A stretch of DNA of 64,000 nt from Candidatus Omnitrophota bacterium (GCA_041661345.1 JBAZUO010000006.1:3410-67409), one strand, 5' to 3'; shown: positions 9,229 through 20,022, counted from the first letter of the stretch. Made by a program: numbers and translations. The notes: generated from the sequence alone by a model not told the origin.

Positions 9229-10983
9229 CTATTCCCGGCTGCAAAGCTCTTCTTTCCATTCTGCCAGCCAGTCTCCGGAAGTTAGCGCAAATTTACTGCA
9301 TAGCTCATCCTTCAGCATCTGGATCTTGTCTCCGCGCCACCACGATTCGACATTATCATATATCTCATTGACCCTCCTGGCGGCATCCCGCGGATTATCG
9401 TATAATATTCCCGCCTCTCTCATCATCTCAAAATACTTATTCGCTTTGGGCCTGATCAGGGTAACGTCGTGATCCCAGAAACATATGCAGGGAACATTGA
9501 TGGTCAGGGCTTCGATAAACGGCGTGCTTAAATGGTCTATGACAACCAGCCTCGACCCCTTCATCTTATCGACCAATTTTGAGCTCTGCAGGAGCTTGAG
9601 CCGAGGTATTGATCTTTTCAACGCCTCCAGTTCTTCCCAGCGGTCTATGGGATACGGCCGGTATATCACTTTATCGAGAAGCCTCTTATCAAGGCTATTA
9701 AAAAATATTTTTTTATCCTCATGATATTTAGGCATATCATCCGGCGACAGGAAACTATGGAACCCGACGTGATACTTATAAATACTGTTGCTAACAAATA
9801 ATATGCTGTTATCTACGGGCTTGTGGGAATTTTTCAGCCTGGAAAGATAGGGGCTCGGAAGAGGCTTCGTCTTTTTGCCGTCATCGGCAACCCATCCCCA
9901 AGTATAAAAAATATCCTTCTCCATAGATATGCCCTCTGCCGGAAAAGAGAGCGATACTCCGTAGCCTCCCCCATGCTGGAAATCAAGCAGGGTTGCTCCT
10001 CCCAGCAACGATTCGGCGGCAAAGAACTTAAAGATATCGTTGAAATACCAACCGACGGCGGATCCGATATATTTTACAGGCCGCTTCGCCCCGACATTGC
10101 TTTTGTAAATTTTGTAATCTTCCACATAACAGGATGGGATGGCAAGAGGGATTGTCCTGCACAGCAGCTCATGAAAAGCATCCTGGCCTCGGCCCAATCC
10201 GATCTTCTCCCTGATCTCGGCAGAATAGGCGCCGCTGAGATCCGCCCTGGGGGTCTGTTTAAAATTACCGAACATCACCCTGCCCCGGGACCCTGCCATC
10301 AACGCGTAAGATTGGGATGGGGCTATATGATACATATCCGTCAGTATGACCGAAGGGGAGCGGAAAAGCATTTTGATATTTTTTAACACATTTTCCATAA
10401 CGGCCTTAAAGCCCTGCTTCTCGACGTCAGTCTTCACATCTTCAACCGCGTTTTTTATATCTATGTTTACGGATCTTTCCGGACACAAGTTGTGTACGAT
10501 ATGGCTGAACAATTTCAAATTATAAAAGTCATCTATCGCCCCGCCTTTCGCGGCCAAAAAGTCACGCATATCATTGCAGGCGATGTTAATGCCCTCCGCG
10601 GGAATGGTATGCGTATAGAGATCCGGATAAAGAGCGATAGCGTTTTCTATCCTCCTGTACCTGTCATAGAATACTTCGATAAAAAAGACGAGCCACGGCC
10701 CTACTAATATCCTCCAGTATCTATCCGGATGATCTACGCCATGGATCGAATTCATGGCCTTTGACAAGAGCGGCATCGTCTTTTCATATAAAGCCCGGCA
10801 ATAGTCTTCAGCTTCTTTTACCCTGAAAGAAGGCCGCCACGGCGAATCTATTATCGTGTAATTCTTATAACGCAAGATCTTTTTCCTACCAGTACCGGTT
10901 AGACACCATGGCCCCAGGACGAGAAGTTCGCGTTCCTCATCCCATATGTCGGAAATAGCTGTTGTCGCTAAATAATATTTCAT
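9229..10983 (-). CDS. Uncharacterised 584-aa soluble protein; possible GT-B-like transferase (LIC12162/TIGR04331-like, from memory only)
   Basis: No TM segments. The C-terminal third looks GT-B-like (RLVVIDHLSTPFIEALTINVPCICFWD). The N-terminus MKYYLATTAISDIWDEERELLVLGPWCL and the FQHGGGYG motif resemble my recollection of a putative transferase family found beside sialic-acid genes. I cannot verify this here. Confidence 0.4.
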   Translation of the reverse strand: MKYYLATTAISDIWDEERELLVLGPWCLTGTGRKKILRYKNYTIIDSPWRPSFRVKEAEDYCRALYEKTMPLLSKAMNSIHGVDHPDRYWRILVGPWLVFFIEVFYDRYRRIENAIALYPDLYTHTIPAEGINIACNDMRDFLAAKGGAIDDFYNLKLFSHIVHNLCPERSVNIDIKNAVEDVKTDVEKQGFKAVMENVLKNIKMLFRSPSVILTDMYHIAPSQSYALMAGSRGRVMFGNFKQTPRADLSGAYSAEIREKIGLGRGQDAFHELLCRTIPLAIPSCYVEDYKIYKSNVGAKRPVKYIGSAVGWYFNDIFKFFAAESLLGGATLLDFQHGGGYGVSLSFPAEGISMEKDIFYTWGWVADDGKKTKPLPSPYLSRLKNSHKPVDNSILFVSNSIYKYHVGFHSFLSPDDMPKYHEDKKIFFNSLDKRLLDKVIYRPYPIDRWEELEALKRSIPRLKLLQSSKLVDKMKGSRLVVIDHLSTPFIEALTINVPCICFWDHDVTLIRPKANKYFEMMREAGILYDNPRDAARRVNEIYDNVESWWRGDKIQMLKDELCSKFALTSGDWLAEWKEELCSRE

Positions 10984-10989
10984 ATTAAT

Positions 10990-17435: not shown

Positions 17436-18269
17436 ACTTCCCTCCCTGTAATATCATACCTCTGTATCTGCATAAAGCGCCGGCATGGTCTCCATCGGCG
17501 GCCCTTGCGGTCTGCAGAATATAATTTCCCGAATATCCTACGTCATTGAGAGCCTTGAGAACGCCTGCTATGTCGGCATCCCCTTCTCCGAGCGGCACCG
17601 TGGTGCCATTCAATTTCCTGTCCTTTATGTGGACGTTGCTGATCCTATTGCCGTAAGTTAAGATCTCTTCTCTGAAATCATAACCCAATGAAGCGCTGTT
17701 ACCTATATCATAATTGATACCGAAACACACCGGATCGAATTTATTGATAAATTTTTTAAAAAGAAACGGTTCATAATCTGATTCGAATGCTATCGTCAAA
17801 CCATTATCCTCAATAATTGATGGACGGTATCCATGCCCGCTCGCAGGCGCTCTTCCTGCTGGCTGTCCTCGAGACTGCCCCTGTCAACAAGCGGAACGAC
17901 GATCTTATTTATGCCGATCTCCGTGCAGGCTTCGACTATATCCATGAATTCTTTCAGCAGCTGCGCGCTACGCTGCCTTTCAGCTTTATAAAAAGGCTCC
18001 TGTATATATGTGTCACAGGTTATGGACGCTATAACGATAGCATTGTCCTTCATATGTTTTTTCATCTCGCGGCGGCCGCCTTCGGACATGAGAGGATTGT
18101 CACTCAACCTATCCTGCTCAACGACCCACTCCATGAGGCCGAACCCGCACTTTTTCGAAATGGCAAATTCATCACGCCATGTATCGCGTGGAAATGATTG
18201 TATCTTACCGGGCTCGATCGGCGAGAATCTTCCCAGCATAAAGCCGACGCGCTTCGGGTCAATTTCCAT
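17419..18269 (-). pseudogene. Xylose-isomerase-like TIM-barrel sugar(-phosphate) isomerase/epimerase, split by a frame change into two ORFs
   Basis: Track ORFs 17796..18341 (181 aa) and 17419..17799 (126 aa, TTG start) are the N- and C-terminal halves of a single barrel of about 280 aa (C-half motifs NYDIGNSASLGYD, NVHIKD). Upstream of the TTG, the second frame reads SIIEDNGLTIAFESDYEP. Both frames are open over 17796..17883. The likely true start is ATG 18269 (MEIDPKRVGF...). Confidence 0.55.
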
Positions 18270-20022
18270 CTGCTGTCCTGTCAAATTGATATAGCCGCCC
18301 CTTCTGCCTGATAAGGTCCTGATAATTCCCGGACTCCACAATCCTGCGGTTCTCTACTACATGTATCAGGTCCGCGGACTTGACGGTCGAAAGACGATGG
18401 GCGATGACAATGATCGTCAATGAATTCCTCATATACTCCAGGGCCTCCTGGATAGCCGATTCCGATTCGACGTCCAATGAACTTGTTGCCTCATCCAGGA
18501 TCAAAAGGCTGGGCGATATCGTAAGGGCTCTTGCAAGCGCTAAACGCTGCCTCTGCCCGCCCGATAACTTCAGGCCATTCTCGCCTATCTGCGTATCGTA
18601 CCCAGCGCTCAAACCCGCTATAAATTTATCGAGGGCCACTATCTTAAAAATCCGGTCCATCTCCGGGCCGGTGATGTCTTCTTTCCGTATACACACGTTC
18701 TCCCTGATCGTGCCGTTAAAAAGAACGCTATCCTGAGATACATATCCTATCAGATCGTGCAGCCTGGACTTATTGATCTCTCCGGCGGGATATCCGTTTA
18801 TCCTTACCATGCCTTTCTGGGGCTCTATGAGCCCTACTATCAAGTCCGCTATTGTGGTCTTCCCCGTCCCGGAAACTCCGATCAGCGCGGTCATTTTATT
18901 TTTCGGAATTACAAATGACAGGTTGTCAAATATCGGCGCCGATCTATTATACTCAAAATAGATGCCGTCAAATTTTATCTCTTCTATATCGCTAAGCTCG
19001 ACATCGCCGTCAATGCTTCTGTTTTTTTCGAAACGCTCGATATAATCGATGATGAGCGCCGTATTTGGCCTGTTCGATATCCACACCTGCTGGGCTTTTA
19101 AAAGCTCGTTGACTCGCGGCAGAAGTTGTCTTAAAAGGTAGACGAATACTATGAGCTCCGCGATCCCGAACGTGATCCGCCGTGACGCAAAATATATGAC
19201 TATCAATATTATAATACCCGACACTTCGTTGAAGTAGGCTGACCCCTGTGTCGTCACGCGGTATTTATAGTCACCCTTCAAAGAGGCCTTATTTGTCTTC
19301 GCCAGAAACTTAAATGTCGCCTGTTGAAGATTTGAACTGAATATGAACTTCGCGGCTCTCAGCCTGTCGAGCATATCCGCAGAGAGTAAGTTTGAGAACC
19401 TGAGATTCACCTGGTTATATCTTTTCGCAATGACGGAAAGCGTGTAATTGACTATGAATATCGCCGAGAGGCATACAAAGAAAACCAGGGAAAGACGCCA
19501 GGACATATATATCGCGATCCCTATGTAAATGATGCTGTAAAAAAGCGCGGCCACCCCTTTAAGTGTGAAGAAATATATATCTCCGGCAGAAACGCATTTC
19601 TCGATGACTATATTGCTGAATTCGCCGGTCCTCACATCCAGGACGGTGTTCCATCTTGTCCCAAAAAACGTTTTTATCAGTCTCTCCCTGAACTGCCTGG
19701 TCACGTAATTCCGGATCTGCTCCATCTGGGCCGTATTTATAAACTTTAACACGAACGAGATCATGATCAGGCTGATCGCGAATATGAGTATCGCATTTAG
19801 GCTGTTCGGGATCCCGAAAAATGCTAAAAATCGATCGATCCTGGCCATCAACAACGCGTTGACGCCTCTTCCCCCAAACATTCCGTCTATTATGGGTATG
19901 AGCAGCGGAATACCGAATGCGTCAAATGCGCCGGTGACCAAGAGCAGCATGATTATCCATACCATCAATCTCATCAGCTCTTTTGCGCCGCCATATTTCA
20001 GAAGTTTATTCAAATAATCCAT
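18259..20022 (-). CDS. ABC exporter, fused TMD-NBD half-transporter (MsbA/PglK-like)
   Basis: 587 aa. About 6 TM helices, then Walker A GVSGTGKTT, signature LSGGQRQRLALARAL and Walker B LILDEATSSLD. Confidence 0.9.
   Translation of the reverse strand: MDYLNKLLKYGGAKELMRLMVWIIMLLLVTGAFDAFGIPLLIPIIDGMFGGRGVNALLMARIDRFLAFFGIPNSLNAILIFAISLIMISFVLKFINTAQMEQIRNYVTRQFRERLIKTFFGTRWNTVLDVRTGEFSNIVIEKCVSAGDIYFFTLKGVAALFYSIIYIGIAIYMSWRLSLVFFVCLSAIFIVNYTLSVIAKRYNQVNLRFSNLLSADMLDRLRAAKFIFSSNLQQATFKFLAKTNKASLKGDYKYRVTTQGSAYFNEVSGIIILIVIYFASRRITFGIAELIVFVYLLRQLLPRVNELLKAQQVWISNRPNTALIIDYIERFEKNRSIDGDVELSDIEEIKFDGIYFEYNRSAPIFDNLSFVIPKNKMTALIGVSGTGKTTIADLIVGLIEPQKGMVRINGYPAGEINKSRLHDLIGYVSQDSVLFNGTIRENVCIRKEDITGPEMDRIFKIVALDKFIAGLSAGYDTQIGENGLKLSGGQRQRLALARALTISPSLLILDEATSSLDVESESAIQEALEYMRNSLTIIVIAHRLSTVKSADLIHVVENRRIVESGNYQDLIRQKGRLYQFDRTADGN

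Follow-up and report, generated by a model that had tools for sequence, protein, structure and literature searches.

A run of nine tightly packed genes in a metagenome-assembled genome of Candidatus Omnitrophota (the window, a stretch of 64,000 nucleotides analysed at its full length; GCA_041661345.1, JBAZUO010000006.1:3410-67409) probably forms a cassette for the synthesis of a cytidine monophosphate (CMP)-activated, amino- or acetamido-substituted 3-deoxy-2-ulosonic acid and for the transfer of this sugar to a surface glycan. The observations comprise gene content, family membership, synteny across phyla, gene fusions and retained catalytic and specificity residues; every chemical step, the order of the steps, the aminated positions and the chain length are deduced from them. 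Sialic-acid-like sugars decorate flagella, S-layers, capsules and lipopolysaccharide, where they shape recognition by phages and the immune system as well as surface charge, and all characterised routes to their amino forms known to us use nucleotide-hexoses and DegT-type aminotransferases. If the proposed reading is right, the biosynthetic logic of the cassette differs from theirs, and its product is probably a new sugar. It is found in abundant uncultured lineages (Omnitrophota and SUP05/Thioglobus), with relatives of its synthase in SAR11, Lachnospiraceae and Thaumarchaeota, and no published assignment of the cassette or its parts to a sugar, biochemical or otherwise, was found in the literature searched.

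The genes occupy positions 9229-18341 on the minus strand as consecutive open reading frames (ORFs) with no gap or overlap exceeding 17 nt, the close packing already described in an earlier note on this DNA. Profile searches against Pfam and NCBIfam models with curated cut-offs bore out the enzyme families named in that note. It had counted ten genes, among them a TIM-barrel isomerase/epimerase split in two; the family assignment stands, but the two TIM-barrel ORFs belong to a single gene broken by one frameshift near 17812, so the cassette comprises nine genes:

9229-10983, minus strand: LIC12162-family transferase, 584 aa (TIGR04331, 411 bits, cut-off 225)
10990-11826, minus strand: short NeuB without a SAF domain, 278 aa (PF03102, 237 bits)
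11836-12297, minus strand: C0-type HAD phosphatase resembling KdsC and Kdn 9-phosphate phosphatase, 153 aa (Kdn 9-phosphate phosphatase model, 106.5 bits)
12288-13130, minus strand: classical short-chain dehydrogenase/reductase (SDR), 280 aa by ORF with an uncertain TTG start (adh_short_C2, 136 bits)
13142-14509, minus strand: class III aminotransferase AT3a, GABA/acetylornithine-aminotransferase-like, 455 aa (Aminotran_3, 256 bits)
14519-15322 (ORF 14519-15352), minus strand: AAC(3)-fold N-acetyltransferase of YokD/FrbF type (AAC3), 267 aa (Antibiotic_NAT, 226 bits)
15319-16077, minus strand: putative CMP-ulosonic acid synthetase (CMPs), 252 aa (CTP_transf_3, 74 bits; PseF, 122 bits)
16092-17435, minus strand: HemL-like class III aminotransferase (HemL), 447 aa (PRK06209, 419 bits, cut-off 486)
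17419-18269 (ORFs 17419-17799 and 17796-18341), minus strand: xylose-isomerase-like TIM barrel (TIM; AP_endonuc_2, C- and N-terminal halves)

The likeliest start of the acetyltransferase is the ATG at 15322, as in the NCBI call, and with this start there is no overlap with the cytidylyltransferase gene.

The recurrence of these genes in other genomes carries much of the argument. The earlier note had proposed a search for the same cassette elsewhere, and three further loci (designated here by L-numbers) carry it: L088, L089 and L091. Complete cassettes were recovered by starting from homologues of the AAC(3)-fold protein and their contigs; a metagenome scan with the same protein returned only two short contigs. 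L088 is arranged as NeuB-TIM-HemL-CMPs-AAC3-AT3a-SDR-HAD, and its HemL, CMPs, AAC3 and AT3a proteins are 80, 83, 72 and 82% identical to those of the window. In L089, from Ca. Thioglobus, the order is SIS-HAD-NeuB-TIM-HemL-CMPs-AAC3-AT3a-SDR, where SIS denotes a sugar isomerase, and L091 has the arrangement of L089 together with a formyltransferase and a LIC12162 gene. The block TIM-HemL-CMPs-AAC3-AT3a-SDR keeps the same order in the window, L088, L089 and L091, at 50-83% protein identity, and is accompanied by NeuB and HAD in all three of the other loci. The linkage of the tailoring genes (SDR, aminotransferases, AAC(3)-fold enzyme and CMP-synthetase) to the synthase, as suggested before, is therefore seen as synteny with NeuB and HAD across phyla. 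Two variants depart from this arrangement. L090 (8255-19170) has an HpcH/HpaI pyruvate aldolase in the place of NeuB, a SIS::AAC3 fusion and two LIC12162 genes, and L092 combines the tailoring set with a SAF-containing NeuB and neither HAD nor SIS. Further fusions join CTP_transf_3 to HAD in L002 and HAD to SIS in Lachnospiraceae loci. Gene order conserved across phyla, together with the fusions, indicates that the parts work in one pathway, and judged by this gene context the cassette is a functional unit and not a chance neighbourhood. L090 also encodes a formyltransferase and an AroB-related sugar-phosphate cyclase (TIGR04425, 426 bits).

A wider view comes from a scan with the NeuB protein, which, at one genome per species, retrieved 80 loci from many phyla (including Elusimicrobia, Lachnospiraceae, Pelagibacterales, SAR86, Thaumarchaeota, Acidobacteriota and Chloroflexota) at 55-77% identity. 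Neighbours within 10 kb of the short NeuB were counted by tblastn with the window proteins in 82 loci, these being the 80 together with L001 and L002. HAD was present in 48, SDR in 44 (median identity 53%), CMP-synthetase in 35, DegT in 33 and TIM in 31. The remaining genes were rarer, with AT3a in 11 loci (usually right after the CMP-synthetase), LIC12162 in five, HemL-like in four and AAC3-like in none. Several related loci lack the TIM gene entirely. Identity to L088 differs between the NeuB (63%) and the tailoring block (72-83%), which points to modular exchange.

The short NeuB matches PF03102 at 237 bits (gathering threshold 22.1) over residues 23-259 of 278, and falls below the equivalog cut-offs for both NeuB/LegI (TIGR03569, 249.9 against 399.65) and PseI (TIGR03586, 183.8 against 340.25). 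No SAF/antifreeze-like match was found in this protein, which ends at residue 278 and covers positions 1-275 of a 329-position model. Its closest solved relative is the 290-aa Leptospira NeuB (6ncs, 153 bits), followed by PseI, SpsE and Neisseria meningitidis NeuB (NmNeuB). Members of the short family, 55-82% identical across many phyla, have 'GYSGHE' in place of 'SDH'. The window enzyme keeps the equivalents of NmNeuB E25, H215, E234 and H236, and has Met (residue 118) at the position of NmNeuB Glu134. Among 88 family members this position is Met in 60 and Ser in 14 (together 74 of 88); Ser is characteristic of an acidobacterial clade with linkage to DegT and HAD. SAF-less NeuBs appeared as an uncharacterised, mostly environmental group in a 2021 survey (PMC8208679). 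The short NeuB is probably an enzyme that condenses phosphoenolpyruvate (PEP) with an aldose phosphate, and the synthase is probably coupled to a phosphatase.

The candidate for this phosphatase is the HAD protein, whose best NCBIfam match is the model of the Bacteroides thetaiotaomicron Kdn 9-phosphate phosphatase. Scores lie below the cut-offs both of that model (NF058599, 106.5 against 180) and of the KdsC subfamily (TIGR01670, 99.9 against 106.95). Among solved structures it matches a Streptomyces avermitilis protein (3mmz) at 131 bits and B. thetaiotaomicron BT1713 (3e81) at 90 bits. The alignment with 3e81 shows the DxD motif ('DFDG') and retention of the BT1713 Glu56, Arg64 and Lys67 positions, with 'STE' opposite 'TGE' and 'RARK' opposite 'RAEK'. 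KdsC enzymes presumably carry Arg where Kdn 9-phosphate phosphatases, and the window protein, have Glu. We take the three BT1713 residues to be those that bind Kdn 9-phosphate, roles reportedly described by Lu (2009) and Daughtry (2013). By score and motif, the HAD protein groups with the Kdn 9-phosphate and KdsC phosphatases and not with unrelated ones. The earlier note had named a grouping with unrelated phosphatases, together with a NeuB of the non-phosphate-utilising LegI/PseI kind, as evidence against its scheme. In an enlarged set of loci, HAD lies within 10 kb of a short NeuB in 52 of 93 cases and SIS in 44 of 93. This frequent linkage, the HAD fusions and the retained BT1713 residues all favour the condensation of PEP with a sugar phosphate followed by dephosphorylation, as had been predicted.

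The two aminotransferases are of different kinds. AT3a scores below every equivalog cut-off and has GabT and related enzymes as its structural neighbours; its orthologues are 63-82% identical in L088-L092, and a 45-50% identical form follows the CMP-synthetase in a second type of module. The HemL-like protein falls below the cut-offs of hemL (TIGR00713, 249.6 against 527.3) and of PRK06209 (419.3 against 486), and matches glutamate-1-semialdehyde aminomutase (GSAM) at 210 bits, D-phenylglycine aminotransferase at 154 bits and, among tailoring enzymes that aminate aldehydes and ketones, gentamicin C-6' aminotransferases at 139-146 bits. It is 80, 63 and 64% identical to its counterparts in L088, L089 and L091, and 45% identical to that of Paramagnetospirillum caucaseum (L094). 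Going by its scores and company, it is a non-housekeeping HemL homologue.

The acetyltransferase belongs to the AAC(3) fold family (PF02522, 226 bits, threshold 25). It falls short of the AAC_3 equivalog (NF033082, 142.2 against 270) and far short of the cut-offs of all AAC(3) resistance subtype models. Bacillus YokD-like structures (133-141 bits) and FrbF (3sma, 130 bits) score higher than resistance AAC(3) enzymes (about 72-87 bits), and orthologues at 45-74% identity lie within the same cassette in L088, L089 and L091. A role as a resistance gene was rejected on these scores and on context, and AAC(3)-family matches in metagenomes need not be resistance genes. L090 and L091 also encode a formyltransferase, which would be consistent with formylation of the second amine in those loci. 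Side by side on a phage contig that bears terminase genes (L093:3304-5435) are an AAC3-like gene (51%) and a HemL-like gene (55%), with a sulfotransferase and an APS kinase further along; the target of the AAC3-like/HemL-like pair may be a glycan of the host or the DNA of the phage. The occurrence of this pair on its own suggests that the two proteins act as a unit that aminates and then acetylates.

Of the remaining enzymes, the SDR scores highest, though below the cut-offs, with the NCBIfam models PRK09186 (164 bits), gluconate 5-dehydrogenase (142 bits) and PtmA (114 bits), and has orthologues with 47-63% identity in L088, L089, L091 and L094. The CMP-synthetase matches CTP_transf_3 at 73.9 bits (gathering threshold 22.6) and PseF below its cut-off (TIGR03584, 122 against 205.7); its structural matches are NeuA/CMP-Neu5Ac synthetases, and its identity to the proteins encoded at the corresponding place in L088, L089 and L091 is 83, 55 and 59%, respectively. 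The TIM barrel has weak matches to L-ribulose-5-phosphate 3-epimerase and IolE. Against the PF01261 gathering threshold of 31.1 its C-terminal half scores 45.5 bits and its N-terminal half 25.4 bits, as they stand in the frameshifted gene. All-frame translation shows the reading frame switching between '...AGMDTVHQLL' and 'EDNGLTIAFESDYEP...'. The joined product of about 283 aa, with a likely start at ATG 18269, aligns end to end with intact homologues of 266-280 aa, and both halves keep conserved motifs. The 584-aa protein that had been noted as a putative transferase belongs to the LIC12162 family (TIGR04331, 411.1 against 225, residues 5-580 on model positions 1-585), which is named after a Leptospira O-antigen gene. 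It has no local Pfam match and no relative in the PDB detectable by sequence, and a single-sequence AF2 model reached a pLDDT of 33 and was unusable. Homologues adjoin related cassettes in L005, L037, L044, L049, L052, L090 (two copies) and L091, and the protein is probably the glycosyltransferase that installs the CMP-activated sugar.

On the proposed pathway, the SAF-less NeuB would condense PEP with an aldose phosphate, supplied in the sister cassettes by a GmhA-type isomerase and here presumably by one encoded elsewhere in the genome, and the HAD enzyme would then remove the terminal phosphate. The SDR would generate a carbonyl group, which the TIM barrel would shift, or next to which it would epimerise or dehydrate. 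Carbonyls would be converted to amines by the two class III aminotransferases, and one amine, probably that made by the HemL-like enzyme, would be N-acetylated by the AAC(3)-fold enzyme. The CTP_transf_3 enzyme would then form the CMP-sugar as the substrate of the LIC12162-family transferase. Comparative genomics supports the scheme of the earlier note, and the order given there (condensation, then oxidation, amination and acetylation) is plausible.

Several observations weigh against this pathway. The cassette has only one dehydrogenase for two aminotransferases, and the second carbonyl needs either a dehydratase-type role of the TIM barrel or another oxidase. An IolE-like dehydratase would supply it by turning a keto-alcohol into a vicinal dicarbonyl flanked by a deoxy carbon; however, the best matches of the TIM barrel are ketose-phosphate 3-epimerases, both sets of matches being weak, and its gene is frameshifted in the window. 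All equivalog cut-offs are missed, so that homology does not allow a specific substrate to be assigned. Acetylation before condensation could fit the SIS::AAC3 fusion equally well. Moreover, the closest relatives of the NeuB (77-82% identity, Omnitrophota) sit in a smaller module with no HAD, SDR or TIM, and coupling to a phosphatase is therefore not universal. This module (L083:10001-15266, L084 and L085) is arranged as NeuB-CMP synthetase-class III aminotransferase-VOC/glyoxalase-methyltransferase-small radical SAM/SPASM, and its small radical SAM protein may be a BtrN-like dehydrogenase that replaces the SDR in anaerobes.

The most serious alternative, although an unlikely one, is that amination and acetylation come first, on the sugar phosphate, with condensation following. 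Aminotransferase, SDR, TIM and SIS enzymes would act on a ketose phosphate to aminate, oxidise and isomerise it. N-acetylation would come next, after which NeuB would condense the N-acetyl-amino-aldose phosphate with PEP and HAD would dephosphorylate the product. This would amount to an animal- or Leptospira-type route resembling that through Neu5Ac 9-phosphate, with no need for GlmS or NeuC. GSAM (HemL) interconverts an alpha-amino-aldehyde and an aminoketone, and by analogy such chemistry would fit the conversion of an amino-ketose into an amino-aldose. The fusion in L090 joins the first-step isomerase to the acetyltransferase, the best characterised relatives of the TIM barrel act on ketose phosphates (L-ribulose-5-phosphate 3-epimerase, 92 bits with the intact L088 copy), and a predicted NeuB-phosphatase fusion of Leptospira offers a bacterial precedent for a phosphorylated Neu5Ac route (PMC3438082). 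However, in L092 these tailoring genes accompany a SAF-type NeuB, with HAD and SIS both missing, an arrangement suggesting that tailoring is independent of the phosphate. A GmhA-type isomerase yields a 2-hydroxy and not a 2-amino aldose, and the phage pair of AAC3-like and HemL-like genes occurs without any sugar-phosphate enzyme. Nor do we know of a class III aminotransferase that acts on sugar phosphates.

The frameshift raises a further, improbable alternative, in which the cassette is decaying in this organism, the TIM gene is a true pseudogene, and the pathway is inactive or its product truncated or non-epimerised. The frameshift lies outside any long homopolymer (window 17800-17820), and the G+C content of the cassette (0.48, against 0.43 for window positions 24-50 kb) fits recent acquisition. 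Against decay, none of the other eight genes is disrupted, they lie close together and their products strongly resemble the orthologues, the conserved motifs survive in both TIM halves, and TIM is altogether missing from several related loci; single-base indels are, moreover, presumably common in metagenome-assembled contigs. The preferred reading itself allows for either case: the TIM-barrel step may be gone from this genome, or assembly may have introduced the frameshift. The last alternative, that a plain CMP-Kdn-type pathway (NeuB, HAD and CMP-synthetase) merely adjoins unrelated amine-metabolism or resistance genes (aminotransferases, AAC(3) and SDR), would draw on the many unrelated roles of each family, the missed specific cut-offs, the absence of AAC3-like genes from the 82 NeuB-retrieved loci and the signs of modular exchange with L088, but is very improbable given the CMP-synthetase gene lying between the HemL-like and AAC3-like genes in the order kept in the window, L088, L089 and L091, the SIS::AAC3, HAD::SIS and CMPs::HAD fusions, and the scores that separate the AAC3-like and HemL-like proteins from resistance enzymes and from hemL.

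Within the preferred reading, in which a SAF-less NeuB condenses PEP with an aldose phosphate, the identity of that aldose is hinted at by the neighbouring isomerases. In most of the 44 SIS-linked loci a GmhA-like SIS gene is the immediate neighbour of NeuB, and some loci have it as a fusion with HAD. The L089 SIS protein aligns with GmhA structures along almost all of its length (154.8 bits to 1tk9, 150.6 bits to 2xbl) and keeps the catalytic His and Glu motifs. Genes for heptose-nucleotide synthesis are scarce in the same 44 loci (a GHMP kinase in one, GmhB-like genes in two and a CBS-type nucleotidyltransferase in four, at most seven in all), and clustering places the window NeuB in a group in which 19 of 28 members have SIS within 10 kb. 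A GmhA-type isomerase beside NeuB hints at a heptose 7-phosphate substrate and a C10 acid. It is thus conceivable, though we hold it only tentatively and below even odds, that the short NeuBs, that of the window included, condense PEP with D-glycero-D-manno-heptose 7-phosphate and that the product is a C10 diamino dec-2-ulosonic acid. Several points stand against it: the SIS isomerases score below the gmhA cut-off (171-183 against 209), there is no SIS gene within the 64-kb window, so that a copy elsewhere in the genome is needed, and a tenth carbon could instead come from C-methylation by a B12-binding radical SAM enzyme.

Two other uses of the SIS proteins were considered and set aside. A role as a substitute for KdsD, leading to Kdo, is disfavoured by the Kdn 9-phosphate phosphatase-type Glu of the HAD protein in place of the KdsC Arg, and by the resemblance of the SIS proteins to GmhA and not to KdsD. 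The analogy in which SIS and a PtmA-like SDR make GlcN-6-phosphate was dropped, since Campylobacter PtmF is a 326-aa oxidoreductase and not a SIS protein (Plesiomonas paper). GFO/SDR pairs in related loci resemble PtmF/PtmA.

If the C10 reading is true, the cassette would provide the first pathway for the CMP-activated, multiply acetylated C10 ulosonic acids of Magnetospirillum gryphiswaldense, which mass spectrometry detected and left unassigned (PMC8157484; SugarBase preprint). Genes of this kind are candidates for making the unexplained C10 acids of magnetospirilla, and a cultured relative carries one such set. P. caucaseum SO-1 (L094:3913-17733, AONQ01000037.1) has the order HAD-NeuB-TIM-formyltransferase-(223 aa, no Pfam match)-HemL-like-GFO-SDR, with HAD, NeuB, HemL-like and SDR proteins 49, 62, 45 and 58% identical to those of the window. 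A GmhA-like SIS gene, 5.5 kb away, and an inositol-monophosphatase-like gene lie upstream, and a B12-radical SAM gene is adjacent; no CTP_transf_3 was detected within 10 kb. The link between this locus and the magnetospirillum C10 acids is suggestive only.

The setting of the cassette is that of glycan assembly. The 64-kb window forms a single glycan-assembly island with many GT2/GT4 glycosyltransferases, a Wzx-like protein, PMT_2 proteins and methyltransferases. A flippase-type ABC exporter resembling PglK/MsbA lies immediately upstream of the cassette, and genes for DegT aminotransferases and NDP-sugar dehydratases/epimerases stand elsewhere in the window. No Epimerase_2/NeuC-type domain was found in the ORFs scanned (at least 120-130 aa) across the window, in line with the earlier report that it holds no NeuC/2-epimerase-type gene. 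B12-binding radical SAM enzymes are unusually numerous; their products may include C-methylated sugars, which would be another way to account for 'extended-backbone' ulosonic acids. Seven such genes lie on the minus strand at 1898-3376, 20025-21458, 21463-22914, 28015-29634, 29625-31106, 47730-49301 and 52212-53693, and two more radical SAM genes, one with a SPASM domain, at 32055-33035 (plus strand) and 46663-47733 (minus strand). B12-radical SAM genes also stand beside short NeuB in L002, L004, L083-L085 and L094. Directly downstream of the LIC12162 gene (6645-9210, minus strand) are two methyltransferase genes and one for a 253-aa protein with a weak APH-type kinase match, which may further decorate the sugar by O- or N-methylation or phosphorylation; these genes were not found by tblastn beside the cassette in other loci. 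Three large minus-strand ORFs have no Pfam match (23875-25494, 25510-27504 and 33793-35601; 539, 664 and 602 aa). A MarR-type regulator is encoded within the biosynthetic locus (27524-28018, minus strand), and small helix-turn-helix genes similar to it lie near the NeuB module in L083, L084 and L094.

Among known systems, the CMP-Kdn pathway of B. thetaiotaomicron (BT1714 synthase, BT1713 phosphatase and CMP-Kdn synthetase) shares with the cassette a NeuB-family synthase, a C0-type HAD and a CTP_transf_3 enzyme; a CMP-Kdn pathway has also been shown in Prymnesium parvum (PMC6200933). However, the SDR, TIM barrel, aminotransferases and acetyltransferase of the cassette have no counterpart in the Kdn route, and the cassette NeuB belongs to a SAF-less clade of its own and carries Met at the position of NmNeuB Glu134. 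The supply of the aldose also differs, with mannose 6-phosphate in the Kdn route and a GmhA-type isomerase in the sister cassettes. The legionaminic and pseudaminic acid pathways likewise place a CMP-activated ulosonic acid with two nitrogens on surface glycans by means of NeuB-family and CTP_transf_3 enzymes. In these pathways DegT enzymes aminate an NDP-hexose, LbH or GNAT enzymes carry out the acetylation, and a NeuC/PseG hydrolase is required. All of these are missing from the cassette, where aminotransferases of class III and an acetyltransferase of the AAC(3) fold stand in place of the DegT and LbH/GNAT enzymes. The predicted Leptospira NeuB-phosphatase fusion (PMC3438082) and the SAF-less NeuB group (PMC8208679) resemble the window NeuB in being SAF-less or phosphatase-linked, but the solved Leptospira enzyme (6ncs) matches at 153 bits only and has Asp at the Glu134 position where the window enzyme has Met. 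The Leptospira cluster itself is of the legionaminic/neuraminic type, with DegT, NeuC and LbH enzymes (PMC3438082). By curated cut-offs, the cassette lies outside the Neu, Leg, Pse and Kdn pathways and lacks their defining NDP-hexose enzymes.

The tailoring enzymes find their nearest parallels in other chemistries. In aminoglycoside C-6' amination by GenB/NeoB-type enzymes, the HemL-like protein has structural matches at 139-146 bits (7lm0 and 7lld), and its pairing with an AAC(3)-fold enzyme echoes aminoglycoside chemistry, whereas GSAM scores higher (210 bits) and the cassette lies among ulosonic-acid genes without any aminocyclitol genes. FrbF, from the FR-900098 pathway, and YokD are the non-resistance AAC(3)-fold acetyltransferases nearest to the window enzyme by score. 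FrbF reportedly acetylates a CMP-linked primary amine, which would make it a precedent for acetylation at the CMP-sugar stage; however, it belongs to a phosphonate pathway, and there is no PEP mutase here. In the Shewanella Kdo8N system, the oxidase KdnB and the aminotransferase KdnA are said to act on Kdo. This logic of oxidising and then transaminating an assembled 3-deoxy-2-ulosonic acid is the one proposed here for the SDR and the class III aminotransferases, although in Kdo8N formation other enzyme families place one amine on an eight-carbon sugar, and N-acetylation does not occur. By analogy, the cassette would work like a Kdn-type or animal-type phosphorylated route joined to the oxidation and transamination logic of Kdo8N and the aminoglycosides.

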